Source: a virus. Taken from it: a DNA stretch of 64,000 nucleotides. Where the stretch lies: positions 32,811 through 96,810 of the IMG/VR virus record IMGVR_UViG_3300036979_001044. One strand, 5' to 3'. The position numbers were made by a program, and so were the translations under genes. Position 1 is the first letter of the stretch, and every line of letters starts with the position of its first letter. The notes under the pieces are model-generated. The model had not been told where the DNA came from and made no database searches. It worked only from the letters and a program-made list of their open reading frames with translations. Of the stretch, positions 1,195-54,580 are shown in pieces.

Positions 1195-2176
1195 ATCAAC
1201 CTCTCTTGCCCTTACGATGGAATCCACTACCGACCCCTGCTTCGCGGGGCCAGATAGGGTGTGGTTGATGGGTCAGTTCATTAACATCGGGGTTGGTCCT
1301 AAGCAACGACGGGAACGCCAGCACTCCAGCAGTATCATCGAGCGTTCTTGCGAGGGCAAAGGACCAACTTGTTTTGTCAATTGCATATTGACTTGGATGC
1401 GGATTGCGGATCAACGCCCGCACCTCTGAACTTGCTCCTTGAACGGGTTGAGGTAGGTTGATGATCGATGCGCCTTGCAGGGAGTCTACATATTGCTCCT
1501 CATAGCGGAGCGGATATCCGGTGTGGAACAGGTCGATCACTTCGGCCACTGTCCAAGCACGACCTGCAATGGCAACCTCGTCCATCCTCCCATTCAGATA
1601 GCTTGCCCTGCCAGTCCAAGGGGTAGATCCATTTGCTCGCGCACCGATAACGCAGGGATAGGTCTTCGAGTGAATGGTGCCAGCACCGGTCGCAGTGTTA
1701 TTCAAATAGCCGTTTAGATATACTCTCGCATCCGTGCCGTCGTAGACACACGCGACATGATACCAGGTAGAAAGAGTCAGCGCCGAAGCAGAAAGAACCG
1801 TTACACCCGTGCTGTCTGATAGCCCCACCTCGAACCGGATCTTCCGTGCGCTATCCACCTCAGCCGTCCACTGAAGGTCTGCCCAAGTGGAGAATGCCGT
1901 GCGCTTGGTCACAAGCGAAAAGACGCCACTAGGTGTTGCCGCCAGATATACCCAAGCCGAGATAGAAATCGCCGTTGGGCTGAAGAGAGCATCAGTTCCC
2001 AGATCGATGTACTGGGAAGATCCGTTGGCCTGAAATCCCGTCTTGAGCATGGCCGTGGGCCAGGTCGGAGTGCCTATCGCTGTTCCATTGAGGACGTTGG
2101 TGTGCGAATCGTTCGCGTTCCCATCCAGCTTGTAGTAGGCCAGCAAACCACTCAGCAAGGTCGGGTGCGTTTTGAT
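503..2176. repeat. Diverged tandem duplication of a ~0.68 kb LamG-coding unit (~503-1178 and ~1496-2176)
   Basis: Shared DNA blocks such as cgtagac.cacgcgacatg.tacca.gtagaaa, aaccggatcttccgtgcgctat and gccgtgggccaggt. Boundaries are approximate. Confidence 0.8.
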
Positions 2177-2182
2177 GTCCAT
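1196..2182 (-). CDS. LamG/concanavalin A-like domain virion protein
   Basis: LamG motifs LLAYYKLDG, ISAWV, WYHVACVYDG, VYLNG, GRMDEVAI. Confidence 0.85.
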   Translation of the reverse strand: MDIKTHPTLLSGLLAYYKLDGNANDSHTNVLNGTAIGTPTWPTAMLKTGFQANGSSQYIDLGTDALFSPTAISISAWVYLAATPSGVFSLVTKRTAFSTWADLQWTAEVDSARKIRFEVGLSDSTGVTVLSASALTLSTWYHVACVYDGTDARVYLNGYLNNTATGAGTIHSKTYPCVIGARANGSTPWTGRASYLNGRMDEVAIAGRAWTVAEVIDLFHTGYPLRYEEQYVDSLQGASIINLPQPVQGASSEVRALIRNPHPSQYAIDKTSWSFALARTLDDTAGVLAFPSLLRTNPDVNELTHQPHPIWPREAGVGSGFHRKGKRG

Positions 2183-2214
2183 TGTTTCAGCGCCTTTCTA
2201 GCAACCATCCAACG

Positions 2215-4098
2215 TCAATCGGTCTCAGGCCCCATCGCCACCCATTGTCCGCTGTCGGTGCAGTAGAACAGGCGGAAGGTTTGGTAGACTCCTTGAAAGC
2301 GGACCTTGATGGTATCCTCGTTGACTGCGTTCCAGACGTTGGAAACTGAGCGGACGTGCGGGATGTAGCCAGGTCGCTTTTGATGGTCCTGCCCCATGCC
2401 TCTGTAGTCTGAGTCGCTATAGGTCTTCATGCGCCATGGAACAAGGAACAGTGCGCCCGTGGCTGCTTCTGGATGCAGGTCAACGCAGTTGAGGAAGTCA
2501 GTTTGTTTGTCGGAGACAACCCACTGGGCGTATTGAAAGTCGGCTTGCCATGGTTTGACGGACCCAAGTGGCTGGAAGCTGCTTACACCTGCGGAGCAGC
2601 GCCACTTGATGCGGTGGACCGGCATGAAGGGGGAGATGAAGACTCTGTCGTTGCGGGCTGAGTGCCACACGGTGGCGTTTCCGTACCCTACGCCCCCAAA
2701 TTGAACCGACTCCTCTCCACCAGAGGCGCCCTGTTGCGGTCCGACGTGGCATCGGATGGCCTCTCCGATTAAGGCGCCGGCCATGTAAGAGTAAGCTGTG
2801 CCGAAGTGAAGAGTCAGGACGTTGGTGACTTCGTTGACGTCTGTCACTAGCACGGGCTCGAAGATCGCCTCATCTGCGTCCAGTTGAGGCCAGGAGTTGG
2901 ACCCCCCTCCACCCGGGGCGCCCTGGTAGGTGTTGCTGACTTGGTTGCGGTTATTGTGCCAATCGGTACCCGGGTTGCAGGAGAGCAGCATGTACCGCCC
3001 ACCCTTGGTGAACAGGTTGGCGTCTGCTACTTTGATCTGTGTGGCTCCAGCGGCTATGTTGCCGTCTCCCGTTGAGGTGGCGGTAGTCATGTCTGTGCTG
3101 CCGAAGGGGGTGTAAAGGCCGACGTAGTTGACTAGGTAGTTGTTGTTGCCCATCATGCAGATGATGGCTACACCGTCTTTGGAGCCATAGAACCAGCAGT
3201 CTCTTGGCGAGGAGATCAGGTTGTAGCGCAGGCCTGGACATCTGCGGTTGGATACCCCGGCAAGGGTCTGGTGTCTGCTGGCCTGCGGGTGCATGGCGGG
3301 GGAGAGGATTTGGATGTGCTGCGCTCCAGGTGAGGTGAAGAAGGGTGTGTAGGAGGTAAGGCGTAGTTTGCCGGTTGTCTCGACTGTTTGCCCGGTAATC
3401 CAGCGCATCTTGCCGTCTGCTGTCTTCAGCAGGGAGCAGTAGTTGAGTTTGTTGTCGTCGTAGGTGGTGTTGAGGTCGCTGGAGTCCATCACGATGTCGT
3501 CGGTGCAGGCTGTGTCTCCAAGGGACCAGAGTACGGTGCCCGTGCTTGACATGAGCGGGTTGACCAGCTCTCTCAGGCCTGAGATGGTCGTTGTGGGGTA
3601 GCTGTTGGTGATGCGGACAGCTACGTCCTTTACGTCGTGTACGGCGGCGGTGGTGCCGTACATGCCTCTAACGCATGAGGTGAGCGTTGTGCCTATGACC
3701 CCTACCTGGATCAGCTCGTCGCCTATTTGGATGATTTCTCCGTTGGCCAGGTTGGGGATGGCGGCTTTGAGCGTGATTGAGGTGTCGGTTGCCAGGATGC
3801 CGGCGGCCAGGTAGGCAAGGTCTGGGCACCACCCTTGTGGTGACTGGATGCTCATGGTGCCAAGGTGGAGGGGGATGTTCTGGTTGCCGTCCTCCCCGTT
3901 GGACTTCAGGAACCAGCCCAGTATGTGGGCGTGTTTGTCGTCTTGGGCGATTCTGAGGGAGTCATCCCCACCGGGACCGTCGCGTGTCGGACTTGCTGGA
4001 TCGTGAATCCAGCCGCAGTCGGTGACGAGAAAATCTTTCAGCTTCTTTGCGAAATCAGCTGTCGAGTTGCACAGGACATGCTTGCCCTTGAAGGCCAT
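2215..4098 (-). CDS. Putative tail fibre / receptor-binding virion protein
   Basis: 627 aa downstream of the baseplate genes. Contains the beta-rich unit TSITL...GEIIQIGDELI...CVRGMYGTTAAVH common in virion appendage proteins. Confidence 0.55.
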   Translation of the reverse strand: MAFKGKHVLCNSTADFAKKLKDFLVTDCGWIHDPASPTRDGPGGDDSLRIAQDDKHAHILGWFLKSNGEDGNQNIPLHLGTMSIQSPQGWCPDLAYLAAGILATDTSITLKAAIPNLANGEIIQIGDELIQVGVIGTTLTSCVRGMYGTTAAVHDVKDVAVRITNSYPTTTISGLRELVNPLMSSTGTVLWSLGDTACTDDIVMDSSDLNTTYDDNKLNYCSLLKTADGKMRWITGQTVETTGKLRLTSYTPFFTSPGAQHIQILSPAMHPQASRHQTLAGVSNRRCPGLRYNLISSPRDCWFYGSKDGVAIICMMGNNNYLVNYVGLYTPFGSTDMTTATSTGDGNIAAGATQIKVADANLFTKGGRYMLLSCNPGTDWHNNRNQVSNTYQGAPGGGGSNSWPQLDADEAIFEPVLVTDVNEVTNVLTLHFGTAYSYMAGALIGEAIRCHVGPQQGASGGEESVQFGGVGYGNATVWHSARNDRVFISPFMPVHRIKWRCSAGVSSFQPLGSVKPWQADFQYAQWVVSDKQTDFLNCVDLHPEAATGALFLVPWRMKTYSDSDYRGMGQDHQKRPGYIPHVRSVSNVWNAVNEDTIKVRFQGVYQTFRLFYCTDSGQWVAMGPETD

Positions 4099-4101
4099 GG
4101 C

Positions 4102-4338
4102 TCACTCCTCCACGGATGCAATATGGTCGTTGATTTGGGTAATGATGTCGAAGAGAAGTTCTCCATCGACGTTCTCGACTTGAAGTGGCTTGGCCAGCAT
4201 CTCCGCCGTGAGCGGAATCGAAAAAACGGTAGTTCCCTTGGAAGTCTCCAAGCTCGCATTGACGTGCGAAAGTCGCTCGGGAGGCGCAGTCGTAATTCTG
4301 GGAAGATTGAGAGTGATGGAGTGAATTTGGATTGGCAT
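4102..4338 (-). CDS. Hypothetical protein
   Basis: 78 aa ORF tightly packed in the minus-strand operon. Confidence 0.55.
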   Translation of the reverse strand: MPIQIHSITLNLPRITTAPPERLSHVNASLETSKGTTVFSIPLTAEMLAKPLQVENVDGELLFDIITQINDHIASVEE

Positions 4339-4401
4339 GCCCTGGTCCTTTCAAAAAATTTACTTTACCCAATTCAATATGGCCGACACGAATTCCCTTT
4401 C

Positions 4402-4821
4402 TCAACCAACAGATTTTTCTAGATCAACATCTCGGGCTCCGGTCAGATAATGCAACGGCAAAACTTTGCGCATCAAATAGGTCGCATCGGCGTACAGTCG
4501 TGGCCAGACATTAATCGACTCCATTAGCAGTTCCTGCTCCAGCGTCTCCAGATCGCTCACCACCAAAGAATAGGGAGTCCCAGAACCAGCCGAAGGGCGC
4601 AGATAAGGTGAATATGCTCGAATGATGCCCGCAGTAAAAGGGTAAAGGATATTTGTGCTACCCGGAATCCCGCTGTAGAGGGCTGGATCAAATGGCATCA
4701 TAGTATTCCCGATCCGAGCCCGGTAGCGGTGGTTGATCACAAACGTGCCGTAGACCTCCACCAGCACCCCTCCAGCTCCGGATAGGTTTGGATGAGAGAA
4801 TCCAGTCAACGTAAGTGCCAT
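4402..4821 (-). CDS. Baseplate-associated hypothetical protein (Ig/IPT-like)
   Basis: 139 aa directly after baseplate J, with a GGAG RBS. N-terminus LTGFSHP...GGVLVEVYGTF resembles an IPT/TIG strand. Confidence 0.6.
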   Translation of the reverse strand: MALTLTGFSHPNLSGAGGVLVEVYGTFVINHRYRARIGNTMMPFDPALYSGIPGSTNILYPFTAGIIRAYSPYLRPSAGSGTPYSLVVSDLETLEQELLMESINVWPRLYADATYLMRKVLPLHYLTGARDVDLEKSVG

Positions 4822-4830
4822 ATCCGTCTC

Positions 4831-6243
4831 CTAGCTAATCACGATGTTTTCATCCGTAGTCCGTGCGATCTGATCGTCAAGCAGGATGATGTCAGTGCTG
4901 GGTGTTACCAGGTTCACGTTGTAGACCCCAGCAACGCTCATCACCTTCTTGATCAACATCGCCCGCAGCACGTCCCCGGAAATGCCCAGTGTATTGATGT
5001 AGTCGCGGATAGCGGTCTTGATTGTCGCACGTACCTCCGCATTATCGTAACCGTCAAGCACGGTAATGATTGCGTTTACCGTCTGGATAAGGACCTGGGG
5101 AGTTGTCACAATCACTAGCACTCCAGCTGCCCGGTACCCTGGATAATTCACGCGATCCGCGGCAACCCCGTCAATGATCTTCTGGGCCAACGCAATCAAC
5201 CCAGTGTACCGGGTATAATTCGCCGTGATGATCTCGCCAGTGACCAATGCTGGGTAAAAGACGATCTGACCCGAAGCAGGATTCAGCCAGAAATCTACCC
5301 CTCGATCCAGCATCCCACGATTGTTGCTCTCCAAAGTGAAAGTCACCGTCCCTTTGATTGCTATGTAGTTCAGGTTCAGCCGTGTTTCACCCCCAACCGC
5401 TGATCCGGCTGGAGGGCCAGAGAGCCCCTCGGTCACAATCTCGTCGACCACTTCCGCGGTAGACTCCGCCGCCCCAGTACCGTCGTCGATATAGACGGTA
5501 ACGAGCCCCGGATTCACGATGTCCTCTACCGCCTTTATGAACATGATGGTTGCGCCGGTATCCAGATCGACTGCCCCGCGCACCGCCTCTTCAATGGCTT
5601 CGATGGTCGAACGCCCCAGCGAAGAAACAAATCGCTTGATCCGATTTCGGAAACTGTCGTCGGTTTCCTTATCCGATCCCCAGGAGAAGGAGCTTGGGTT
5701 GGTGACACTGTCGACTCCCGCCGGGCGGGACACAAAGCGGATGATGGTCGAAGCTACCACGTTTCCAGAAATTCCAGGAAGCACCGCCTGGGTGGCGATC
5801 TGCCCGCTATCCTTCCCGACCCCATGCCCGCTGATCTGTTCTGGACTGGTGGGGGTGATGGTTCCAGAAACTGTGGTGATGAACTCAGTTCCTACCGATG
5901 TGCGAACCTTGGTCCCAAGCGGGATGGTCACCGTTCCGACCGTCGTATTTCTGGAAAATACCAAGAGCCCAGTCGACTTTGCCGCCGCATTTCTGGAAAT
6001 GAGTCCGGGTTGGATCTCTCGCGACCGCTCGTCCAGGTCCTCCCCAGTCGCGGTGTCGATGGAGAACACCTGGCGCAGCAGGTACATCTGGTAGGAGATC
6101 TCATCGAGCTGGCGCGCAGTAGCGGCAATGATGTGCTTGACGACCGAGGTGTCGGAGATATCCGAGAGTTTGGTGCGGGTGACTATCTTTGCAATCATCT
6201 GAGCCAGAAACTGCTCATAGCGCTTGGTGGTGAAAACCGGCAT
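4831..6243 (-). CDS. Baseplate J-like wedge protein
   Basis: IDTATGEDLD, TIPLGTKV, GISGNV, GSDKETDDSFRNRI and YRAAGV are typical baseplate J motifs. Confidence 0.92.
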   Translation of the reverse strand: MPVFTTKRYEQFLAQMIAKIVTRTKLSDISDTSVVKHIIAATARQLDEISYQMYLLRQVFSIDTATGEDLDERSREIQPGLISRNAAAKSTGLLVFSRNTTVGTVTIPLGTKVRTSVGTEFITTVSGTITPTSPEQISGHGVGKDSGQIATQAVLPGISGNVVASTIIRFVSRPAGVDSVTNPSSFSWGSDKETDDSFRNRIKRFVSSLGRSTIEAIEEAVRGAVDLDTGATIMFIKAVEDIVNPGLVTVYIDDGTGAAESTAEVVDEIVTEGLSGPPAGSAVGGETRLNLNYIAIKGTVTFTLESNNRGMLDRGVDFWLNPASGQIVFYPALVTGEIITANYTRYTGLIALAQKIIDGVAADRVNYPGYRAAGVLVIVTTPQVLIQTVNAIITVLDGYDNAEVRATIKTAIRDYINTLGISGDVLRAMLIKKVMSVAGVYNVNLVTPSTDIILLDDQIARTTDENIVIS

Positions 6244-42625: not shown

Positions 42626-45600
42626 TCACTTGTTCTTGTCCGATTTCAGCTTCTCGCTGATCCAGGCAACGATCTTATGCTGATCCACCGCGATGTACTC
42701 ATTGTAGAGGTGCCCGACTCCATCGCTCTCCATGATCTTGCGCAACTTGGCCAAGTTCTCCTCGGGCGTCCCGCCCTTCTTGCACACGGTACGATAGAGG
42801 ATAGCGGCACGATGGGACGTATCGAGCTTTTTGAACGTCGCCTCGAAATGCGCGATGCACTGGTCGTGGGTGTCTTTGTCTGGAATCCAATCACGCATCC
42901 GGAACTTGTAGTAGCGGCAGGAAAGAGAATCGTTTTGCGGCATGTCCTTGATCGGGATGGGCAGCCGCAGCACCTTGGCCTGGGCGTCGGCGATACCGCG
43001 ACCGGTCGGATCGACAATGACCTTGTTCTTCGGGTCGTAGTAGATGCTGTTGCAGGTGAAGTCGCGGCGCTCGAAATCCTTGCGCATCTCGTGGTCCACC
43101 CGAATGTCCGGCCACCACTTGCCGTTGACCGGGTTGGCGCACTGCTCGCCGTCCGCGGTCGTATAGGACACCATGCCTGTCAGGTCAATGCCCGGGCCAC
43201 TCTTGGTGGCACAAACAGTCATCCAGGCCTCGTCTCCAGGGGCCTTGCTAGTGATCCGCCTGTCCCCGGGCAAATCCGCACCAACTTTGTTGAAGCAAGT
43301 TTTCATCACCGTCGCGTCGGCCGTGGTCACCATATCGAAGTCCTTGAGCTTGGAGATCACCTTCTCATCGGTGATCTCACTTCCCTCTTGGACCAGATTG
43401 AGCAGATCGCGCACCGCGCCGCCAACCAGATAGGTCTCGCGGCCTCGTTCCCAGAGCCAATCGACGTACTCGGTTGGGGTGTGCGTACCCACCGCAGCGG
43501 TGGCCATCAACTCGTCCAGAATCTTCTGGTGCCGTTCATTGGGGCGGACGAAAGACTTTTCTGGAAGATCATGCACCGCTGACTTGTAGTGCTCGGGGCC
43601 CGCCTCATTGGACTTGAATCCCTTCCAGTCCTCGAAGTGCAGTTGCGTCGAGTGGTTCTTGTCGTGCGGGCCCTGGTAGTCCGGCCCAAAATCAACGATC
43701 GGATGCCCCGCTTGATCCGTGCCGATATACGTCCCCGGAATCTCCTGGCCCTTTACGATCGCAGTGAGCTTGGCGCCGTTTCTCATGTACCCCTTCAGCA
43801 CCTTCGGAACTTTCAGCTCGCTCTTGGGTACGAGCTGGATCTCGCCCACCCGCTCGACTTTCGATGGAGCAAAAACGGTATCCGCCTTCACCTTCAGCGC
43901 GGGCGCCTGGGCGGGTTTGGGCTTTCCCGGCTTCTCCGCCTTTTCTGGAAAGACCGCCAGCGGATCGGCGTTCTCAATTTTCTGGAATAGATCGCGACTC
44001 ACCGTGATCCGGTTGTAGGTCGGGCCGGGCTCAATGGATGCCTCAATCTGGAAATGCTTCCGCAGCTGCTCGATGACCCCCTTGTGCCCGGGAGCGAACT
44101 TCAGCACCACCAGATCAGGATCGGTGTGGTGCGGGCGCAAATGCCCATCCAGGTACGTCATGAGTCGCGCGGTCCAGCCCGGTTCCTTGGTCTGTCCACC
44201 GTTGCGGAAGTAGATGGGCGTGTTGCCATCCCAGGCGACGATCTTACCTCCGCGGGGCCCAGTCGCGATGATGGCGGCCATCGACTTCTCCAGGTCAGCT
44301 TTGTCCTGGGGGCGGAGCGCTACCTTGGCGGTGTTGCCGATGACGTAGCGCCTACGCTCTTCGGTGCCCTCCCTCGCTGAGTCCTGCCCGGTCACCGCCG
44401 CGTCGGGCAAAACGATCGGGTAGACGTTACGCAGAGGCTCGGTGACCGTGTAGATCTCCTTGTCCCGCTTCAGTCCCTCGGCGACCTCTTCCTCCTCATC
44501 CTTCCAGTCGCGGAGCAAGTCAGCCGGATCGATGTGAGGATTGGGACCTTTTTCTGGAACGCGCCGCTTGGGGGTCTCGACCAGGTAATTGGCCGCGGTG
44601 CCATGGCCGCCCGCGCGATTGCCCGCCTGGCTGGTGGCCGCGCCGATGTCCGCCGATACCTGCCCGCCCTTGCCCAGCCCGGATAGCGGGATGACCAATC
44701 GGAGCTTGGGCGACTCCTCGGCGCTCTGCACCCGGGTGAGCCCCACCCAGCGCTTGAAGGCCTCGATGTCCATGGGGTTGGTCTGGAGGAAGAACTTCTC
44801 CGGCCGGTCGTAGCTCAATCCGTAGGCGCGCTCGGCATCCTCCTGATTGGAGAAGCCCAGCATGCACTTCTGCTCGTCCCAGATGCCGGTCTCGGGATTC
44901 TGCTGCTCGATGACGTAGGCCATCTCGGAGTCGGGGTCAGGGCCGATGAACACGTCGAGAGGATCATCGTCGGCGCCGGTGGTGCCCAAGATCTCCCCGT
45001 AGGCGTGCAGCATCCAAGTCTTGTCGGTGCCCCCGTCCGGGGTGTGAAAGGTCCGCGAGGTGCCCTTTGGGTTCTCGATGTGGATGGGCAATCCCCAGAG
45101 ATGCACCAGCTGCTCGCCACTGGAGAGAGCCTTGCGCAGATCGTCTTCGCGCAGGAGCGCGCGCATGAGCGCCTCCTCGCTCTTGTAGACCTTGCCGCCC
45201 TTGCCCCCGGGCACCAACTCCCCCTCCTTGTTGAAGCCGTAACCGTCTGGAATCCTTAGTAATTGACAAGAACAATGCGGATGGATCGTGCCGATGACCG
45301 CTTGCCACTCGGCGGTCTTCTTGCCCACGTTGGTGCCGTTGGCTACCAGGGTCGAGAGCGGGAAGATGCGCGGGTTGCCGTCCGGGCCGTTGTAGAGCCG
45401 GTCGCAGTGCTTGCAGTTATGCACTGCTAACCCATTGGCAAAATAGCTCTCGTCTTCCTCCACTTCCAGATTGAACACTTCACCTGTGAAAGGAACCACA
45501 GCAATGCTGTTGACTCCTCTGGCATAGAACGATATAGGCTGCGCATGAACCGTAGACGCAATATTCCCAAATCCGAATTGATTCGACTCTGGAAAACCGG

Positions 45601-46954
45601 AAAACATACGATTGGGTCTTTGGGGCGGCACTTTCAAGCCGGCAGTACCACAATCAAACGCCGCTTCCGTGAATGGGATATCCCCATACCCAGCCGAACC
45701 GAAAGCCAGATCGCCAACTTGCGCAGAATGACCCCCGAACAAAGAAAAGCCCTCACCGAGAATGCGCGTAAAGCGCGTAAACTGGCATGCAGCCCAGCTG
45801 CGCAGCATGCCAAAGCTCTGACCAATCAGCGCACCCAGCGCTCGGTTACTCCCACCACCCAAGCCTTGGCCAAAAGACTCGCAGCGTTCCATCCCGTACT
45901 TGAATTCGCTTTCGATAAATTCAACATCGACATTGCTATCCCGCATCTGAAGATAGCGATAGAGGTAGACGGCGGGGGGTGGCATTACACGGGAGCCGTC
46001 CGTAGACGAGATCAAATCAAAGAGCTTCTCCTCTGGGAGCAAGGCTGGATCGTGTTGCGCGTTCCCGACAGTTGCGCAGACCAAGTAATCGCCGCAGTGA
46101 ATCGAATCAGCGCGCCGCCAGTTCATATTAACTAGGAATGGATGATTTTCTGTAGCATAGGGTTTCTGCCCATCAATCCCGATCAGTTTTCCAGAAAAAT
46201 GACGCTGAAAAGCGTGGGTCACCTTCCGCCAGCGCAGCTTATGGGTGAGCACCTCTTCCCCGATACGCACCTGCTCGATGGGAATTTCCCCGCTACGGGT
46301 GTGCACCAACGTGCCCGCGGTAAAACAAGCATCCGGCATTACCCGCTTTGCAACCAGGGCCTCCTCACCGTAGCGCTTGGCGATGTGGTCGGCGAGCCCG
46401 GTCTGCATGGCGGTCTGCTTCTCGGTGACCGCGATGCGATCCCAGTCGCGGGTCCAGTCCTCGCTCGCCCAGCCGAGGTCGCTCTTGAGCTGCTTCGCCG
46501 TCTCGCGCTTGGCGATATTCTGGGCGGTCTTGTCCCGCACAACGCGCTCCAGCTTGGCGCGGAGCTTGGCGTCGGCCTCGATGAGGATGTTGCCGGTCTG
46601 CTGGTTGACCTTGTTGCCCAGGCCCTTCAGGTAGCCAGCGGCGCTGAGCTGGGCGAACTTCACCGCCCGCTGCTCGGGGACCGAGAGCGGGATAGGGTTC
46701 TTGCGAACGTATTTCTGGAAAGCGTCGAAGCTCATGTTGGCCGTGGCCTTGTTCTGGAGAATTCCCAAGAGCTGGCCGTAGAGGTAGGCCTGCTCCACCG
46801 AATTCAAGTGCCCCTCGATGAGCCCAGCCTGCTCCAGCTCCGTCAAAACCCCGGGGTCAACCGCCTCCGGGCCGATGGCCGAGACGATGAAGGCGTTGTG
46901 GTGCTTCTCCACGATCTTCTGGACTTTCTGGAGTTGCTCGGGGGTCAATAGCAT
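42626..46954 (-). CDS. MuF-like head morphogenesis protein with intein, fused to inorganic pyrophosphatase and CCA-adding/poly(A) polymerase-type nucleotidyltransferase domains
   Basis: MuF: RDWDRIAVTE, DAC|..|CKHC, HPHCSC. iPPase: IENPKG.R...YG.I.GT.GADDDPLDVF...DEQK.MLGF. NTase: YLVGGAVRDLL, KDFD, DFERRDFTCN. Confidence 0.85.
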   Translation of the reverse strand: MLLTPEQLQKVQKIVEKHHNAFIVSAIGPEAVDPGVLTELEQAGLIEGHLNSVEQAYLYGQLLGILQNKATANMSFDAFQKYVRKNPIPLSVPEQRAVKFAQLSAAGYLKGLGNKVNQQTGNILIEADAKLRAKLERVVRDKTAQNIAKRETAKQLKSDLGWASEDWTRDWDRIAVTEKQTAMQTGLADHIAKRYGEEALVAKRVMPDACFTAGTLVHTRSGEIPIEQVRIGEEVLTHKLRWRKVTHAFQRHFSGKLIGIDGQKPYATENHPFLVNMNWRRADSIHCGDYLVCATVGNAQHDPALLPEEKLFDLISSTDGSRVMPPPAVYLYRYLQMRDSNVDVEFIESEFKYGMERCESFGQGLGGGSNRALGALIGQSFGMLRSWAACQFTRFTRILGEGFSLFGGHSAQVGDLAFGSAGYGDIPFTEAAFDCGTAGLKVPPQRPNRMFSGFPESNQFGFGNIASTVHAQPISFYARGVNSIAVVPFTGEVFNLEVEEDESYFANGLAVHNCKHCDRLYNGPDGNPRIFPLSTLVANGTNVGKKTAEWQAVIGTIHPHCSCQLLRIPDGYGFNKEGELVPGGKGGKVYKSEEALMRALLREDDLRKALSSGEQLVHLWGLPIHIENPKGTSRTFHTPDGGTDKTWMLHAYGEILGTTGADDDPLDVFIGPDPDSEMAYVIEQQNPETGIWDEQKCMLGFSNQEDAERAYGLSYDRPEKFFLQTNPMDIEAFKRWVGLTRVQSAEESPKLRLVIPLSGLGKGGQVSADIGAATSQAGNRAGGHGTAANYLVETPKRRVPEKGPNPHIDPADLLRDWKDEEEEVAEGLKRDKEIYTVTEPLRNVYPIVLPDAAVTGQDSAREGTEERRRYVIGNTAKVALRPQDKADLEKSMAAIIATGPRGGKIVAWDGNTPIYFRNGGQTKEPGWTARLMTYLDGHLRPHHTDPDLVVLKFAPGHKGVIEQLRKHFQIEASIEPGPTYNRITVSRDLFQKIENADPLAVFPEKAEKPGKPKPAQAPALKVKADTVFAPSKVERVGEIQLVPKSELKVPKVLKGYMRNGAKLTAIVKGQEIPGTYIGTDQAGHPIVDFGPDYQGPHDKNHSTQLHFEDWKGFKSNEAGPEHYKSAVHDLPEKSFVRPNERHQKILDELMATAAVGTHTPTEYVDWLWERGRETYLVGGAVRDLLNLVQEGSEITDEKVISKLKDFDMVTTADATVMKTCFNKVGADLPGDRRITSKAPGDEAWMTVCATKSGPGIDLTGMVSYTTADGEQCANPVNGKWWPDIRVDHEMRKDFERRDFTCNSIYYDPKNKVIVDPTGRGIADAQAKVLRLPIPIKDMPQNDSLSCRYYKFRMRDWIPDKDTHDQCIAHFEATFKKLDTSHRAAILYRTVCKKGGTPEENLAKLRKIMESDGVGHLYNEYIAVDQHKIVAWISEKLKSDKNK
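45416..46327 (-). mobile_element. Intein (class 1) in the MuF domain, 304 aa
   Basis: Block A CFTAGTLV, block B ATENHPF, block F VFNLEVEEDESYFANG, block G VHN followed by Cys+1. Splicing restores PDA-CKHC. Confidence 0.9.
45545..46135 (+). CDS. HTH plus DUF559/Vsr-like PD-(D/E)xK endonuclease, antisense inside the intein
   Basis: IDIAIPHLKIAIEVDGGGWH...RDQIKE..L..QGWIVLRV; N-terminal HTH-like TIGSLGRHFQAGSTTIKRRF. Confidence 0.85.
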   Translation: MNRRRNIPKSELIRLWKTGKHTIGSLGRHFQAGSTTIKRRFREWDIPIPSRTESQIANLRRMTPEQRKALTENARKARKLACSPAAQHAKALTNQRTQRSVTPTTQALAKRLAAFHPVLEFAFDKFNIDIAIPHLKIAIEVDGGGWHYTGAVRRRDQIKELLLWEQGWIVLRVPDSCADQVIAAVNRISAPPVHIN

Positions 46955-47476: not shown

Positions 47477-48791
47477 GATACTGCTCACCCCACTGTGCGG
47501 TATCGATCTGCATCTCGGCAAGGGCTTTGCGCACCCAGAGGGGCAGCTGCTTCCCCTCTCGGCGCGCGGCCGAGACCTCCGCGTAGCACTCGTGGGGGTT
47601 GGTCGCCGCGTAGTCGGAGATCTGGGACATGATCTCGTTCTTGTGCTGCTTCAGCTGGGGTACGCAGTGCTTCTTCCAGATCTCCCAACAGGAGAGCTTC
47701 GATCCCTTCGCAAACAGGTGCCGGAGCACAAACCCCTCGACGTGCCCGCACTCGTGGCGGATGGTCGAGATAAGCCCATGGCCAGTCGTGAAGTGGCTGT
47801 CCCCTTGAGTCGCCTTGGCGTAGCCCTCGTTGAAGTAGTCCGGGCCGACTACCATCACCGATCGCTGGTAAGGCTTCTGGTCGTAGGGATGCGCGACCGC
47901 AATGGCCGATCCCCCAAGCGGGCACTGCTGGGTGAGATCGATCGGATGCTTTCCAGAAAGTGCGATGTGGTTCTCCTCCGGATGCGCCTTGGCCCACTTC
48001 TTCAGCTGCTCGGGCGTGCCCAAGAAGTGCAGATGAGCAACCACCAACGGATGCTGCTCGCTCAGGGCCTTGTTGGCGGCGTTCGCTGTCGCCAGGTCCG
48101 GATAGCGGACTGCCAGGTGCGGCAGATGCTTCGCAGCCCAGCCGTGAGCTTCTTCCAAAGACTCAGCAGCTCCGGTGAAGTGGTCGACAAGCTGATGCTT
48201 GGGCCTAGCGGTACCGGGGACAGATCCCGATACCGGGTCTGGTTCAGCTGGTGCCGGGGGCGCCACTTTGGGCGATGCCACTTCTGGCGTCTGATTTTTC
48301 GCCGCTGCTTTGAATTCATGTCCCGCTCCTGGAGTGAAACTCTTCGGCAGCATGAGCAACAGGTACTTCCCGCCGGGGATGATCGGCGCCTCGATGTGCT
48401 CGCTCTGCTTGAAGGCGGCGAGTGCCGCGGCCTGGGCGTGAGGGATCTTCACCACCACGAGTCCGGGGTTCGACTTGTGCGGCACCACCTTCCCGCCCAA
48501 CTGCGCCGCCCAGCTGTCGAGCGCCCCGCTCAGCCGCTCAGGGCTCCAGTGCTGGGTGTGCTCGGGGTCCGCCCAGAGCCCGCCCTTGGGGCCAACGAAG
48601 GGACCGGACTTCTCCAGCTTCAGCGACTCGTAGGGCGGGGTTTTGTCTTCACGTAGCCGCTGCTCCTCCCAGTACTTCTCGGGGTTCTTCTGGGACTCGT
48701 CGAACCCCTGCCCGAACAGCTCGCGGATTCGCTTTTCGTCTTTGGGGTCGACCTTCAGATCCACCCCGGTCCTGACCGGCTTCTCGCTCAT
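47469..48791 (-). CDS. Zincin-like metallopeptidase with GPxGG module
   Basis: RHECGH (HExxH) plus ISDYAATNPHECYAE; N-terminal LEK|SGPFVGPKGGLWADPEH. Confidence 0.8.
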   Translation of the reverse strand: MSEKPVRTGVDLKVDPKDEKRIRELFGQGFDESQKNPEKYWEEQRLREDKTPPYESLKLEKSGPFVGPKGGLWADPEHTQHWSPERLSGALDSWAAQLGGKVVPHKSNPGLVVVKIPHAQAAALAAFKQSEHIEAPIIPGGKYLLLMLPKSFTPGAGHEFKAAAKNQTPEVASPKVAPPAPAEPDPVSGSVPGTARPKHQLVDHFTGAAESLEEAHGWAAKHLPHLAVRYPDLATANAANKALSEQHPLVVAHLHFLGTPEQLKKWAKAHPEENHIALSGKHPIDLTQQCPLGGSAIAVAHPYDQKPYQRSVMVVGPDYFNEGYAKATQGDSHFTTGHGLISTIRHECGHVEGFVLRHLFAKGSKLSCWEIWKKHCVPQLKQHKNEIMSQISDYAATNPHECYAEVSAARREGKQLPLWVRKALAEMQIDTAQWGEQYHG

Positions 48792-51700
48792 GCTCCACCC
48801 CAAATTCTGGAACCGGCCGTGGCTCCAGACACGATGTGCGGCGGCAGCTCAGCCGCCTTGCTCTGGATGTACTGCATGGCCTGGCCGTAGAGCGCGTCGG
48901 CGTCTACCGAAAGCGCCTCTGGGGGCATCTGGTCCAGGAATTGCACCGGGTCGCCCTTCTTGGCCTTGGCGAAGACGAACGTCGCCTTGTCCTTGTTCTT
49001 GCTATGAAAAGCGGAGAAGTTCTTGGCCCCGTGGGCGTAGCTGTCGGCGAACAGCCGGGCGTCGACCATGCGCCCGATGCTCTTTGCTCGATCCACCGCC
49101 CCGGGCCAAGTGGTCATCGGATCAGCGGACACAAACAGAAAAACTGGTTTGATTCCGCGCTTCTCGCACTCCTCCATCAACCAAGGATTCTCCGTCCCGT
49201 TTTGCTCGCCGGCCGCATCCCAAGTTGCCGCTACGCTCTGGGCCAGCTCGGGGCGCGCACCCAGCGCCGAGCCCTTCCCCCCAGCCACCCCACCGCTGGT
49301 GACCAGGATCTTCCGCTCGCCCTCGGGCATCTTGGCGATCTCGTCCAGCCGTTTCATGAAGGCGCGCTTGACCACCGCGTTAGCCGTCTGGTGGAGCGCG
49401 GTGTTGTACAACGCCCGGGCCTGGGCGCGATCGGGATGGATGGGCTTGCCCTTCTCGTCCGGGGGCAGATCGGGCCGGGTCCACTCAGGCATCATGCTCT
49501 TGGCCGCGTCGGTCTCGAAAATGAAGTTGTTCTTCTTGACCACGTCGTAAAAGGCGGAGGCCATCCCATCGGAGTCCGCCTCGAAGGCATCGGCGAACTT
49601 GCCCTCCACCGCCCGCTCCTCCGCGGTCAGGTTGGGCAACCGGGGAATGGTGGGCGGCGGAGCGACGGTCTTGCCCGGCAGTCCCACCCTAGCCGCGTCG
49701 GCGACCCCATCCCCATCAGCGTCGACCATGGGATCAACCTGGTAGGCCAGCGGGTCTCCGCCCGCCGGCGGGGTGAGCCCGGCCTGCGGGGCCCGGGGAG
49801 CGCTCTGCATCTGGGGCGCGATCTGCGCCGCCGGAGTCGGGGCGCCCATCTGGGGCGGGGGTTGCGGGGTCTGCGCCTGGGGAGTTGGGGCCGGTTGCGC
49901 GCCAGCTCCGCCCCCAGTCCCTTCCTCGGTCCAAGGAATGGTGTGCTCCGGGTCCGCCCACTTGCCGCCCCGGGGCCCGATAAACATCCCGGCCTTGAAC
50001 AGCGAGAGCTGCGCGCTCTCGGATTCGTCCAGTTCCAGAAAATCGTCCAGAGACTTCTGGAACAGCAGATCCTTCACCTTCTGCTTGTCGACCGCGACCA
50101 GGTGGTATTGCCCACCCTCAAAGGTCGGCTCGGCGATTCCATATTTCTGGAGCTGGGCCAGCGCCTCGGTCGCATGCTTGGGGACCTTGACCATCACCTT
50201 GGTCGGGTCTCCGTAATGCTCCTTGATCTTGATACCATGCTCTTGGATGAATCCAGAAAATGCCTGGGCCGGCACAGACCCCTGCTCAGGCGTTAGCTTT
50301 GGTGCCGGCGCCGGCTCAGGCGTAGCAACCGCAGGTTTAGCCTCCGGGGCCTTCTCGGGCGCAGCTGTTGGCTCAGGAACATACGCAGGAGCCGGCGCGG
50401 GCTTCTTCCCCGCAGATACCGCAGTATCCACAGCTTTGGCCCCCATTTGCACATATGCTTCTTCCGATGCCAGGTAGCCCTTCTTCTTTCCGCCCTTCCC
50501 CTCCCAAGCCCAGAAGACATCGCCACCGATTTCAACTTTGGTGAACGACTGCCCGTACCCCAGATGGATTGTTGTTCCCGCTGCAAGCGAATTCAGCTTT
50601 CCAGAATATTCCGCCGTGATCGTGTCAGTATCTTTCTGCGCTTGCTCCAGCGAAGCTGCAATGCCGGCGGGGTCTACAACATAGGGAGTCGCAGACTCCT
50701 TCTTGACCTCCGCAGCTAGCTTGTCAAACATCTCCACGGTCAGCGGCTTGTCCACCCCGGAACTGGGCGAAGGAACTCCCTGCCAGGGCACCTCGACCAC
50801 CGTCGCCGAACCAGGCAAGATCTCGGTGCCAGCCGTTTGCGGCTCGGGCAGGTTGGGGGCTAGCTCGGGGTGATCCATGTCCGACAAAGCTGGGACCTGC
50901 GAAGTCGCAGCGCTCTCCGCGCCACCGCCCGCCGTGGGCCCGGCGACCTTGCCGTGGATCTGGGTGAGCAGTTCATCCACGGATATCGGCTTGCTCATCC
51001 ATTCCATCTCCGCCGCGGTGAGCTGCTTGCCTTGCGTGAGCTTCTGCCCCAGCTCGTACTTGCGCCGCAAAATGTCGTTCACGTTCTCGTCGAAGAGATT
51101 GCCCTCGGCGGTCATCCAGTAGACGTTGACCGCGTTCTTCTGCCCAATGCGATGGGCGCGATCCTCCGCCTGCCTGACATCGGCCGCCGTCCAGGGCATG
51201 TCATTGAAGACAACCTTATCGGCCGCTGTCAGCGTCGCACCAACGGCCATGGATTGACGGGTTGTCACAAAGACACGCTTCTCACCGATGAAGTTGCCAG
51301 CCTCATCCTTTTTCTGGAACTCCTTCTTGGCCGCTTCACGGGCGTCATCCTGCATCTGCCCGTGATGCAGGATAGCCAGGTCGCCGAACTTCTCGGCGAT
51401 AGCCTTGGCCGCCTCGACCGAATCGCTGAATACGATGACCTTGGAATCGGAGGTATCGAGGATTTCCTGCACCATCGACTCGGTGACCGGAACCTTGCCC
51501 TTGGCAATCTCAGCCTTGAGCTTAGAAAACGCCCCAATCGTATTCTGCTCTCCCATGTCGGGTAGACCAGGGACTGGGTGCTTGACGATCGACGTGGTCT
51601 TTTCTGGAAGGTCTTTGAGCACCGCGGTCTTCTGCCGGGCGATGTAGACCTCGTGCATGTCCATCCAGAGCCCGCCGATGGGTGCGGTCTTGATCGCGTT

Positions 51701-54580
51701 CTTGGTGAACTTCCCTGGCGCCACCATTTCCAGCTGGGTGAATAGCTCCTCCTTCTTGTTCTTCACCGCCGTTCCAGAAAGCAGGATGTGGTGCTTCATC
51801 CCCGCGCCTATTTTCTGAACTGTTTGAGTTTGTTGTGCTTTTTGAGATTTAATTCTGTGGCTCTCGTCGATCACGATGGTGTCGAACCCGGCCGCGGCGA
51901 TAGTCGCCTCGAACTTGGCCAGCGACTCGTAGTTGACCGCCGCGATGTTGATTCCAGAAAGGTCGGGAACCTTGCCCTTCTTTAGATCAGCGGCGACCAG
52001 CTCCACCCCATGAAAGTAGTTGGGAAAGAACTTCTCGGCCTCCTCCAGCCAGTTGCGCCGAACGACCTTAGGACAGACAACGAGCACGCGCTTGTCGTTC
52101 TTCGCCGCCCAGGCAAGGGTCTGAATGGTGTTGTGGGTGACCACATGCCCTTGCACAATGAACGTGCTCTGGAGCGACTCGACCGCGATGCAACGCATCT
52201 CCTCCTCGCGCTCGCTCGGGCAGATATCCACGATGGCCCGGGCCAAGCTCGACGCCTCCCAGTGCTCGGCCTTGCGCTCTAACGAGTAGGGGTTGAACGC
52301 CGCGCGGATGTTAACCCGGTAGCTCGGTAGCCCGATGCGAGTCTCGCCGTTATGCTGATAGCGCGGAGCGCGCTTGATCGAGAGCGAAGCGATCGCCCCC
52401 AGCGATCGGGCAAGAAAGATGACATCGTTTGCCAAACGCCTGGACGAGGTGCTGTAAATGCAGCAAGATCCAATCGGAGTATCCCCATCAGTGTCCATGA
52501 GCCCGGCAAGCAACTGCTCACGTTCCTCAATCGAAGCGTAGAGGTATCTTTCTGGAATGAACTTTTCTGGAGAGAGACAACCTTGCAAGCCCAACTCACG
52601 CAAGCTGTCGAGCACCGGATTCTTTCCGTTGATTCCAGAAATTCCCCACGTCGGACAATCGCCCTCCCCAACCTTGCGGGGAACCACAACGCAACCGGCG
52701 GGCAGTAACGCCGCCACCCGCTCAGTGATCTCCATGTCCGGTTTCGTCCAACTCACCGAAGTACCCCCGATTGCCCCATCACCGATGAGCACACCCAACA
52801 CGTAGGGGTCGATCGGCAACTCGCCGCGATACTCAAACTCCTGGGGCAACGCCACCGGTAGATACCAACGGTATTGGCCCTTGCCGTGCCCAGTACGCAT
52901 CCCTTCTTCCAGAAGCTGGGCGGTGGTGCGGACCTTGCCTTCGTTCTCCCGAAAGCGATCCATCGCAGTGTAGACATGCCAGAGGTGCTCGGCGTCGCAC
53001 TCGACTACTTCCCCGTCGCGGGTCTTGACCGCCCAAACCTTGCGCTGGCCCTGGGGATAGACCCCGGATACCCGCACCGCAGCACCGGTCACCGGATCGA
53101 TGACCTCATCGCCCACCTGCAAGTCCCCGAACCGCCTCCAACCCTTTGGGGTCAACGTAAGTGTTTGATTTACTAGCGCTTTACCAAGACCCATTTCGTC
53201 GCCGATGAGCGCGTTGCCGTTGGCCTTGTCCAGAAAACGCACGCACTCGTTCTGGAAGGACATGAGCTTCAGGTCAGGGCCGAGCTTGGCCTGCACCTCG
53301 GGGATGGGCTTTTGCAATTCAGCGATATCCTGATCGCGCTTGATCCGCGCTTCCTTCACCCCGTGGGTCATGATCTGCCACTTGGGGAAGAGCACGGTGA
53401 GCTTGCCTATCGCCTCCTCGGTCAGCTCCAGATCGAAGGTCTCGCGGGCGTGCGTGACCGGGTTGTACTTGGTGATTCCAGAAATCTGCCCACCCTTGTT
53501 CGTGAAGAGGGTGTTGAAGGCTGGCGCGTAAGGCGCGTAGAACTCGAAGATCCCGTCGGGTCGCTGGCGCACCACGATCACGTCGGTGACCTGGTGAGCG
53601 TTGATGCCCTTGATGTACTCCTCGATCTTGTCCCCGGTGAGTGCCTCGCCCGCAGTGGGCCCAGTGGCCTTTGCCGGGGTGCCGAGGGGTTCCAAAACCT
53701 CGATGCCGAACTTGGCCATGTCCTTCTTGTAGGCGGCGAAGTCGAAGCTGGCCAACTTGAGCTTGCTGATCGCGAAAGCCTTCTTGTTGCCGTCGTAGAT
53801 GCCGCCATACTTTTTCTGGACCTCGCAGTACTCCTTGAAGTCGTTCTTGAGGAAACCGTTGAGCGGCAAGTAGAGCGAGCCGAAGGTGTCGTGGTACTGG
53901 GGCTGGATGCTGAAGCCAGAAGTCTTGGGCTTCTCGACCAGGTGCAGCCCGCACTTGAGGTAAGCCTCTGCCCCGAAGTGGGAAGCGATCTGCCCCTTGT
54001 ACTTCTTCAGCATGTTCTTCATTCCAGAAATGTTGCCGCGCACCGAATGCCAGTAGCCGAAGTCGTAGTGGTTAAAGCCGGTGTCGTCGATGACATTGTG
54101 CATCCCGTGCTGCATAGCGTAGAGCGCGTCGCCGATCTCGATGAGCTTGTCCTTCAGCTCGGCCTCGGGGTAGGGGACGATCTGGGGCGCCTCCGGCTCG
54201 GGTGCCTGGCGACTGACCGGTTGATCTCCAGTCCAGTGGATGGTGTGAGCCGAATCAGCCCACTTGCCCCCGTGCGGCCCGATGAAGAGCGCCTTGCCGA
54301 ACGGTTCCCCCTCCTCCTCCGCTGCTCCGATTCCTCCGATGACCACGTCTGCTATCTCCTGGAGCATGAGGTCCAGTTGGTGGGCGTACAGCTCGCGGGT
54401 TCGCGCGGCCAGCTCCTGGAGCACCGGATACTTCAGCTCCTGCTCCTTCTTGGGCAGAGCCTTCTCCAGCATCTCCGCTATTTCTGGAACTTCGCTGGAC
54501 AGCATCTCGCCCAGCCGTTCCAGGAGCTGCCCCGACTTCTCCCGGATTTCCTCCGGGCTTGCCTGAAGCTCCAACCGCAT
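48788..54580 (-). CDS. Polyvalent protein: intein-containing SNF2-family helicase plus C-terminal zeta-toxin-like P-loop kinase
   Basis: DEMGLGK|intein|TIQ, DESH, LSGT, GATLTAA, QAEDRAHRIGQ. C-terminal SGGVAGGKGS...R...GRMV. Confidence 0.88.
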   Translation of the reverse strand: MRLELQASPEEIREKSGQLLERLGEMLSSEVPEIAEMLEKALPKKEQELKYPVLQELAARTRELYAHQLDLMLQEIADVVIGGIGAAEEEGEPFGKALFIGPHGGKWADSAHTIHWTGDQPVSRQAPEPEAPQIVPYPEAELKDKLIEIGDALYAMQHGMHNVIDDTGFNHYDFGYWHSVRGNISGMKNMLKKYKGQIASHFGAEAYLKCGLHLVEKPKTSGFSIQPQYHDTFGSLYLPLNGFLKNDFKEYCEVQKKYGGIYDGNKKAFAISKLKLASFDFAAYKKDMAKFGIEVLEPLGTPAKATGPTAGEALTGDKIEEYIKGINAHQVTDVIVVRQRPDGIFEFYAPYAPAFNTLFTNKGGQISGITKYNPVTHARETFDLELTEEAIGKLTVLFPKWQIMTHGVKEARIKRDQDIAELQKPIPEVQAKLGPDLKLMSFQNECVRFLDKANGNALIGDEMGLGKALVNQTLTLTPKGWRRFGDLQVGDEVIDPVTGAAVRVSGVYPQGQRKVWAVKTRDGEVVECDAEHLWHVYTAMDRFRENEGKVRTTAQLLEEGMRTGHGKGQYRWYLPVALPQEFEYRGELPIDPYVLGVLIGDGAIGGTSVSWTKPDMEITERVAALLPAGCVVVPRKVGEGDCPTWGISGINGKNPVLDSLRELGLQGCLSPEKFIPERYLYASIEEREQLLAGLMDTDGDTPIGSCCIYSTSSRRLANDVIFLARSLGAIASLSIKRAPRYQHNGETRIGLPSYRVNIRAAFNPYSLERKAEHWEASSLARAIVDICPSEREEEMRCIAVESLQSTFIVQGHVVTHNTIQTLAWAAKNDKRVLVVCPKVVRRNWLEEAEKFFPNYFHGVELVAADLKKGKVPDLSGINIAAVNYESLAKFEATIAAAGFDTIVIDESHRIKSQKAQQTQTVQKIGAGMKHHILLSGTAVKNKKEELFTQLEMVAPGKFTKNAIKTAPIGGLWMDMHEVYIARQKTAVLKDLPEKTTSIVKHPVPGLPDMGEQNTIGAFSKLKAEIAKGKVPVTESMVQEILDTSDSKVIVFSDSVEAAKAIAEKFGDLAILHHGQMQDDAREAAKKEFQKKDEAGNFIGEKRVFVTTRQSMAVGATLTAADKVVFNDMPWTAADVRQAEDRAHRIGQKNAVNVYWMTAEGNLFDENVNDILRRKYELGQKLTQGKQLTAAEMEWMSKPISVDELLTQIHGKVAGPTAGGGAESAATSQVPALSDMDHPELAPNLPEPQTAGTEILPGSATVVEVPWQGVPSPSSGVDKPLTVEMFDKLAAEVKKESATPYVVDPAGIAASLEQAQKDTDTITAEYSGKLNSLAAGTTIHLGYGQSFTKVEIGGDVFWAWEGKGGKKKGYLASEEAYVQMGAKAVDTAVSAGKKPAPAPAYVPEPTAAPEKAPEAKPAVATPEPAPAPKLTPEQGSVPAQAFSGFIQEHGIKIKEHYGDPTKVMVKVPKHATEALAQLQKYGIAEPTFEGGQYHLVAVDKQKVKDLLFQKSLDDFLELDESESAQLSLFKAGMFIGPRGGKWADPEHTIPWTEEGTGGGAGAQPAPTPQAQTPQPPPQMGAPTPAAQIAPQMQSAPRAPQAGLTPPAGGDPLAYQVDPMVDADGDGVADAARVGLPGKTVAPPPTIPRLPNLTAEERAVEGKFADAFEADSDGMASAFYDVVKKNNFIFETDAAKSMMPEWTRPDLPPDEKGKPIHPDRAQARALYNTALHQTANAVVKRAFMKRLDEIAKMPEGERKILVTSGGVAGGKGSALGARPELAQSVAATWDAAGEQNGTENPWLMEECEKRGIKPVFLFVSADPMTTWPGAVDRAKSIGRMVDARLFADSYAHGAKNFSAFHSKNKDKATFVFAKAKKGDPVQFLDQMPPEALSVDADALYGQAMQYIQSKAAELPPHIVSGATAGSRIWGGA
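52130..53179 (-). mobile_element. Class 3 (Ala1, WCT) intein with LAGLIDADG homing endonuclease, 350 aa
   Basis: Starts ALVNQT; EHLW (Trp), MRCIAV (Cys), VTHN (Thr) followed by Thr+1. LAGLIDADG motifs LGVLIGDG and LAGLMDTDG. Inserted in Walker A. Confidence 0.9.

Follow-up and report, generated by a model that had tools for sequence, protein, structure and literature searches.

Inteins whose homing endonuclease is encoded on the opposite strand form a rare kind of element. In actinobacteriophages, Gosselin, Arsenault and Gogarten reported LAGLIDADG or VSR-like endonucleases that lie antisense within full inteins; by their account, the inteins of minor capsid proteins were exclusively non-canonical, and the in-frame middle forms no recognisable structure (bioRxiv 10.1101/2025.01.02.630785). 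The same authors proposed that such elements originated by the capture of a free-standing endonuclease gene, and considered the sampling of non-canonical inteins too sparse for firm phylogenetic inference. Here, we analyse a further case of this known kind, located in a provirus record of IMG/VR (IMGVR_UViG_3300036979_001044; 96,810 bases). The window, that is, the whole stretch of DNA that was analysed, covers 64,000 nucleotides (nt) of this record (positions 32,811 to 96,810), and all coordinates below refer to it. A minus-strand gene for a MuF-like head-morphogenesis protein is interrupted by an intein, and the middle of the intein is occupied by a nuclease gene on the plus strand.

Other arrangements that keep the endonuclease apart from the intein frame have also been described. 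The Ssp DnaX and Chloroflexus inteins contain LAGLIDADG genes that run antisense, for which bioRxiv 10.1101/2025.01.02.630785 cites Gorbalenya (1998) and Gogarten (2002); a frame-dependent ratio of nonsynonymous to synonymous substitution rates (dN/dS) is on record for the dnaX case (bioRxiv 10.64898/2026.09.14.751524). Dassa et al. (2009) found free-standing Vsr-like endonuclease genes between the halves of split inteins; Vsr-like and GIY-YIG endonucleases, the two types encountered in their fractured genes, were not then known inside inteins (PMC2677866). The homing endonuclease I-Bth0305I was described by Taylor et al. (2011; PMC3239194; PDB 3r3p).

The element in the window is probably a mobile class-1 intein in the zinc knuckle of the MuF-like protein, with a homing endonuclease supplied by a separate helix-turn-helix (HTH) plus Vsr-like gene that fills the endonuclease slot on the opposite strand. 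This reading is carried by the observed anatomy, homology and folds, by the recurrence of the layout, and by the stop avoidance and strand-specific purifying selection seen in relatives. The features are as follows, with lengths in amino acids (aa).

42626..46954, minus strand: host gene from the list of open reading frames (ORFs), MuF-like head-morphogenesis protein of 1442 aa, with Pfam matches to InPase, PolyA_pol, Hint_2 and Intein_splicing
45416..46327, minus strand: contiguous class-1 intein, 304 aa, host residues 210-513, running from Cys1 to His-Asn and followed by Cys+1
46058..46327, minus strand: Hint N-terminal lobe, intein residues 1-90, with blocks A and B
46136..46153, minus strand: block B, TENHPF
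45548..46057, minus strand: read-through linker, intein residues 91-260, the antisense translation of the nuclease gene
45416..45547, minus strand: Hint C-terminal lobe, intein residues 261-304, with blocks F and G and the terminal HN
45431..45478, minus strand: block F
45416..45430, minus strand: block G
45413..45415, minus strand: +1 Cys of the C-extein (CKHC), presumed nucleophile for the last splicing step
45545..46135, plus strand: nuclease gene nested antisense in the intein and codon-aligned with its frame, 196 aa from ATG to TAG
45569..45673, plus strand: N-terminal HTH DNA-binding module, nuclease residues 9-43, with three modelled helices and profile matches to 2lvs, 1g2h and 7bhy
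45851..46114, plus strand: Vsr/DUF559-like nuclease core, residues 103-190, from alignments and structure matches

The intein begins with CFTAGTLV after VMPDA and ends with LAVHN ahead of CKHC. It is thus inserted between MPDA and CKHC, in the first Cys knuckle of the MuF zinc motif, a position referred to below as site a. The class-1 signature is complete in the window (C1, T59-x-x-H62, block F, LAVHN and Cys+1). Among 49 related inteins, H62 and N304 are invariant, and C1, T59 and H303 are each present in at least 90%. On the minus frame, Pfam Hint_2 scores 33.6-35.1 bits (cut-off 28.4), and Intein_splicing scores 40.3 on the excised intein (cut-off 35.8). The middle of the intein, read in the minus frame, has no Pfam match and no PHROG match. 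When the intein was folded with the 49-sequence alignment, the lobes reached a predicted local distance difference test score (pLDDT) of about 97 (86-98 in the N-terminal and 84-98 in the C-terminal lobe), and residues 91-260 only 39-56. The confident parts match the mini-inteins gp41-1, DnaB and DnaX with a Foldseek probability of 1.00. A split-intein or fractured-gene reading of the window was rejected, since the host is one continuous ORF of 1442 aa with no stop across the intein.

Besides the intein, Pfam finds an inorganic pyrophosphatase domain and a poly(A)-polymerase-type nucleotidyltransferase head domain in the host protein. Phage_Mu_F has no Pfam match on the window protein itself; it is matched by the homologous hosts L014 and L017. 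Two further features, the motif CxxC ... HPxCxC and an InPase domain downstream, are common to the window host and to relatives that bear their inteins at a second position, site b. Splicing would be expected given a conserved head-morphogenesis host gene, and the predicted junction restores MPDACKHC, as found uninterrupted in the homologous host L019.

The nuclease gene and the intein frame share their triplets (coordinate mod 3 = 2 in either case). The stop codon of the nuclease ORF adjoins block B, 19 codons separate its start from block F, and the ORF has no TTA, CTA or TCA codon. The last ~25 codons of the Hint N-lobe stretch overlap the 3' end of the nuclease gene, which makes this part true double coding. 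The original prediction, drawn from the sequence alone, had claimed a MuF intein with blocks A, B, F and G intact and a central ~200 aa that look like the antisense translation of a complete HTH plus DUF559/Vsr-like nuclease. It had also claimed that this ORF ends at block B, starts shortly before block F, is codon-aligned with the intein and lacks the three codons. In all of these elements the prediction agrees with what was found.

The plus-strand ORF matches MTES_1575 (6e-7) and DUF559 (4e-4) in Pfam, as well as several PHROG nuclease families. A word-indexed homolog search with this ORF found nothing; an exhaustive HMMER search, which covered 1.84 billion representative proteins, found 985 relatives at E<=1e-3 and 60 at E<=1e-10, most of them 180-320 aa long. 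In a 72-sequence alignment, D129, E140, W146 and H147 are invariant, and D142, G143, G144, D156 and K159 are nearly so (D142, D156 and K159 in at least 90%); the window copy keeps all of these residues. The family profile matches, among the PDB sequences, the DUF559 protein 3hrl (1.6e-9) and the catalytic domain of I-Bth0305I, 3r3p (2.5e-8). The AlphaFold2 model built with the same alignment has a mean pLDDT of 94.3 and a predicted template modelling score (pTM) of 0.77. Foldseek places 3r3p first for this model (probability 1.00, template modelling score 0.59-0.60 on the target), followed by the Vsr structures 1cw0 and 1vsr and by 3hrl. By its modelled fold, then, the ORF is an HTH plus Vsr-like nuclease.

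The layout is not confined to the window. Pattern-based scans with the nuclease alignment found 27 viral, 12 genome and 80 metagenome loci. In 67 of these, the nuclease gene is flanked by both Hint halves, which are encoded on the other strand, and 49 of the 67 are unique complete inteins. The register is codon-aligned in all such loci, at GC contents from 0.33 to 0.70 (0.33 to 0.69 for the nuclease gene), and the antisense frame extends for 400-1500 aa in related loci. The other two antisense frames are closed in the window and in 27/27 viral loci, the only ones tabulated. All ten host ORFs that were checked with Pfam match Hint or Intein_splicing, several together with Phage_Mu_F, InPase or Zeta_toxin. 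The nuclease start lies 105-162 nt from the C-terminal end of the intein in 47/49 loci, and most of the stops are 141-222 nt away from the N-terminal end; by these distances, the nuclease gene fills the usual endonuclease slot.

One of the loci belongs to a finished genome. The Gordonia phage Malisha, cultured in the SEA-PHAGES programme (L123, OP434458.1), has the layout in its gene 5 (record 3598..5223), which lies between portal and scaffold and is annotated as a 'hypothetical protein'; no annotation exists for the nuclease ORF. The Malisha nuclease carries a duplicated HTH. This phage offers a tractable experimental system, and the fact that the nuclease was missed even in a finished genome suggests that the class is probably undercounted.

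The exact register explains how two proteins can share the same bases. In an aligned antisense frame, the only sense codons that produce stops are TTA, CTA and TCA. Since each of them can be replaced by a synonym, no amino-acid sequence of the nuclease is incompatible with an open host frame. Across the 49 unique embedded nucleases, no TTA, CTA or TCA codon is observed, against ~227 expected from their own base composition. Ten free-standing relatives have 77 antisense-stop codons against ~80 expected, which shows that the expectation model is calibrated. Because the embedded set was picked by its open frame, all six frames of every locus were searched for Hint halves; only two loci, L054 and L059, were found to have flanking Hint halves with a closed frame. 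The embedded nucleases are 22-55% identical to that of the window and share one intein family and slot. Such divergence means that the open frame reflects continuing purifying selection on the host gene, and not only a filter at arrival. For the family, stop avoidance is decisive in rejecting chance.

Selection was measured in both frames as the ratio of nonsynonymous to synonymous differences (pN/pS) in eight pairs of close homologs.

Hint N lobe: pN/pS 0.28 in the minus (intein) frame, 1.27 in the plus (nuclease) frame
Middle: pN/pS 0.97 in the minus (intein) frame, 0.27 in the plus (nuclease) frame
Hint C lobe: pN/pS 0.23 in the minus (intein) frame, 1.22 in the plus (nuclease) frame

The strand flip along the intein is seen in 8/8 pairs, and most differences affect third codon positions of the frame under selection. 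The nearest relatives of the window copy are too distant for pN/pS, but they are clearly better conserved in the plus frame: the BLOSUM score of the window against L042 is 456 in the plus and 278 in the minus frame, and against L003 it is 335 and 135, respectively.

Several points weigh against the reading of the window as a mobile intein with an antisense homing endonuclease. The nearest relative of the window copy is 52% identical, and as no relative exceeds this value, selection on the window copy has to be read from the family. Intein_splicing scores 35.5 on the full protein, just below its cut-off of 35.8. A promoter scan of the window found no sigma-70-type promoter before the nuclease ATG, and only a weak Shine-Dalgarno sequence (AGG) precedes this codon. 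The open antisense frame of the window, taken alone, could have arisen by chance: of the 196-codon stretches in the other genes of the window, 31% are likewise open in the aligned antisense frame, and the probability of finding none of the three codons is 0.19 under the synonymous codon usage of the phage (it is 0.003 under the base composition of the ORF itself). Finally, splicing, transcription, cleavage and homing are inferred for every member of the family.

The figure of 31% also speaks for a chance open frame, given that aligned antisense frames are often open in GC-rich DNA. A chance frame, or an inversion that arose as an assembly artefact, is nevertheless refuted by the homologs, the fold, the selection and the recurrence. 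A chance frame would not be expected to have 985 homologs, a confident fold and strand-specific selection, and 49 independent unique loci share the layout, which excludes an assembly artefact; the finished genome of a cultured phage has it as well. We regard this explanation as having next to no chance of being correct.

The missing promoter and the lack of close relatives, by which selection on the window copy could be gauged, lend themselves to another explanation. The intein could be fixed and its nuclease gene an inactive or unexpressed relic in this phage, open only because stops in the host frame are lethal and because the time for decay has been short. Some VSR-like cases do look vertically inherited (bioRxiv 10.1101/2025.01.02.630785). 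However, selection on the host frame purges only TTA, CTA and TCA from the plus strand, and leaves plus-frame stops, frameshifts and missense changes unprotected. Despite this, the ORF of the window is intact, keeps all invariant residues and is modelled at a pLDDT of 94, and the pN/pS of its relatives is 0.27. A relic is therefore unlikely, and an active homing endonuclease remains the preferred reading.

The insertion sites of the family bear on mobility. Most relatives are inserted at site b, in the conserved motif of MuF where HP(N/H) is followed by C(R)C. The window, L003 and L042 carry their inteins at site a, after MPDA and before CxxC, which is 47 residues upstream of site b; the intein of L043 is inserted three codons later. 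Occupied and empty sites are reciprocal: site b is empty in the window, and site a is empty in homologous hosts with a site-b intein, such as L019 with its uninterrupted MPDACKHC.

45266..45283, minus strand: empty site b of the window, HPHCSC, 47 aa downstream of the intein

In L042 (SDBS01000365.1), the closest relative of the window, sites a and b are both occupied, 47 aa apart, within one MuF-InPase gene. Its two nucleases are 52% and 32% identical to that of the window, and the sites read PDA followed by CQHC (a) and HPH followed by C..., with CQCQ after the intein (b).

1915-2493 of L042, plus strand: antisense HTH-Vsr nuclease gene, inside the minus-strand ORF 1-4086
3055-3576 of L042, plus strand: antisense HTH-Vsr nuclease gene, inside the same minus-strand ORF

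The GC content of the intein is lower than that of the flanks in 42/45 loci; in the window, it is 0.53 against about 0.62. The site, occupancy and GC patterns fit a homing element that would have changed its target several times.

The nuclease family is found in four contexts: as free-standing genes, in-frame within an intein, and antisense in either contiguous or split inteins. The in-frame context is seen in the protein P0111 (639 aa), where DUF559 lies in-frame inside a C5 cytosine DNA methylase and an Intein_splicing match surrounds it. P0091 (808 aa) has the same layout of DUF559 within a methylase, with no intein match. It appears that a sense, in-frame intein version of the family exists in at least one case.

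The genes that neighbour the host gene are on the minus strand, so that a plus-strand nuclease gene needs a plus-strand transcript of its own. Such a transcript had been invoked by the original prediction; it is logically necessary only if the nuclease gene is expressed. The same prediction regarded the nuclease as the only convincing plus-strand gene in the window. Seven other long plus-strand ORFs there have no PHROG match, and none of the plus-strand ORFs tested besides the nuclease has homologs; this agrees with the claim and is not proof of it.

Sequences upstream of the nuclease start in the relatives give some hints about expression. A TANNNT motif ends 4-12 nt upstream of the start in 18/49 relatives, against a background of 6%, and a Shine-Dalgarno-like 4-mer is present in only 10/49. 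The distance to the start is 6 or 9 nt in 16/49, where the motif is often TACAAT; in the window, TATAGG is the only approximation to it. This pattern would fit short-leader or leaderless antisense transcripts, and it is confounded by relatedness and by the coding constraints of the intein.

A second upstream element occurs in about eight of the 49 loci (L007, L010, L044, L045, L053, L062, L070 and L094). Just upstream of the nuclease start, on the plus strand and 83-108 nt inside the C-terminal end of the intein, there is an inverted copy (14-15/21 nt) of the first C-extein codons of the same locus, the codons for peptides such as CRCQW, CACE and CRCV; its position is consistent, and its score is at the edge of the shuffle maximum. 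When the region upstream of the nuclease start was tested in the window, no such copy was present. The inverted copy could be an operator, half of a target site, or a relic of gene capture. The homing endonuclease I-TevI is known to repress its own expression.

As a possible regulatory site, the inverted copy in some relatives would also suit a nested gene with a function other than homing, such as an HTH regulator or a nuclease for conflicts between phages or between phage and host that shelters in a dispensable loop of the intein; DUF559/Vsr-like nucleases have many roles. The gene, however, fills exactly the endonuclease slot, and among solved structures its product is closest to I-Bth0305I, whose homing activity is proven. 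A homing unit would be expected to switch sites, to leave empty and occupied alleles in reciprocal patterns and at times to occupy both sites of a gene, as is seen in this family, and the free-standing, in-frame-intein and split-intein contexts of the family are all contexts of mobile elements (PMC2677866). A role other than homing thus seems quite improbable.

If the nuclease is a homing endonuclease, the element could work as follows. The ribosome would read the antisense stretch as a ~170-aa unstructured linker within the precursor, and the two Hint lobes would fold together, splice the linker out with the intein and restore MuF. The nuclease, made from its own plus-strand transcript, would cut intein-less alleles between MPDA and CKHC in co-resident phages or prophages, and repair would copy the nuclease gene in together with the intein.

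The two loci with a closed frame, L054 and L059, have GC contents of 0.32-0.38 and contain 8 and 12 antisense-stop codons, respectively, in the nuclease gene. In L054 (869..2481), MuF is divided into two ORFs, one with the N-extein and N-intein and a separate one of 68 aa, with its own ATG, for the C-intein and the C-extein; an intact nuclease gene lies inverted between them. In L059 (1702..2442), the contig ends inside the nuclease gene, and there is a matching C-part ORF of 73 aa. We read neither as a broken gene; both are candidates for split inteins that occur naturally. It is conceivable, although we would not quite count on it, that this large and old intein family, which has switched between zinc-knuckle sites of MuF, started out with the register-locked antisense layout and has actively maintained it, and that failed stop avoidance in AT-rich phages gave rise to split inteins with an inverted endonuclease gene. 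If true, split inteins and fractured genes could arise in a way not described so far, with L054 and L059 as the candidate examples.

The window contains a second intein in an SNF2 helicase gene.

52130..53179, minus strand: intein of ~350 aa in the SNF2 helicase gene, ORF 48788..54580

This intein splits motif I between GLGK and TIQTLA and has an in-frame Hom_end domain of the LAGLIDADG type. It runs from ALVNQ to VVTHN, followed by T, and its first residue is Ala, not Cys or Ser; it may be a class-2 or class-3 intein. The one provirus therefore holds both a canonical intein and one with an antisense endonuclease.

The original prediction is supported in its interpretation, an inverted endonuclease gene within an intein. 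The computational checks that came with it all turned out as it foresaw: profile searches place Hint on the minus and DUF559/MTES_1575 on the plus frame, selection differs by strand in the expected direction, and the minus-strand insert resembles no domain. The novelty that it implied was overstated, since the preprint of 2025 already reports the architecture (bioRxiv 10.1101/2025.01.02.630785). The value of the present analysis accordingly lies in breadth, quantification and new variants. Relative to the text of that preprint, what is new is the strict codon register and the reason why it works, the calibrated statistics of stop avoidance, and the strand flip of selection. The layout is also shown to occur well outside actinophages and at three insertion points, with one gene occupied twice, and to have split variants with an inverted endonuclease gene. 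Within ~590 bases, two proteins are encoded on opposite strands, and gene callers give only the longer one. The family offers a clean case from nature in which the choice among synonymous codons in one gene is constrained by another gene, and shows why the exact antiparallel register survives. Protein engineers may be interested in short, well-folding Hint lobes that are predicted to tolerate an unstructured insert of ~170 aa.

Compared with the actinophage inteins of Gosselin et al., the window has the same contiguous intein, the same antisense VSR-like ORF in the endonuclease slot and the same structureless in-frame middle. The hosts may also correspond: theirs are minor capsid proteins (MuF/SPP1 gp7-like), and the window host is MuF-like by way of its homologs. 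Unlike their cases, the window copy comes from a provirus record of IMG/VR and not from an actinophage in PhagesDB, and its insertion point between MPDA and CKHC differs from that of most relatives (site b). The codon register and the avoidance of TTA, CTA and TCA are not treated in the text of the preprint, where 'codon' occurs only within 'stop codon'. Similar to the Ssp DnaX and Chloroflexus SpoVR-like inteins, the endonuclease of the window is encoded apart from the intein frame, and dN/dS is frame-dependent. Those inteins, however, have a LAGLIDADG endonuclease in another frame or antisense, a dnaX-type host and a place in cellular genomes, whereas the window has a Vsr-like nuclease in a phage.

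With the fractured genes and I-Bth0305I, the window shares the nuclease superfamily, the location in phage genes and an endonuclease gene at the endonuclease insertion point of the intein. In contrast to fractured genes, the window has an unbroken host ORF and intein, and its nuclease gene points the other way; the inverted orientation is shared by L054 and L059, although these two are truly split like fractured genes. The likeness to I-Bth0305I is one of profile and fold; the signature motif of the window is E-x-D-G-x-x-W-H, as in DUF559 and Vsr, and its conserved residues may correspond to the EDxHD residues of I-Bth0305I or to D51, H69 and D97 of Vsr. Canonical bifunctional inteins such as PI-SceI resemble the window in the Hint fold, the insertion into a conserved host motif and the presumed homing cycle. 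They carry an in-frame LAGLIDADG or HNH domain, whereas the endonuclease of the window is outside the intein polypeptide. These cases fit the idea of endonuclease acquisition by inteins through the capture of free-standing genes.

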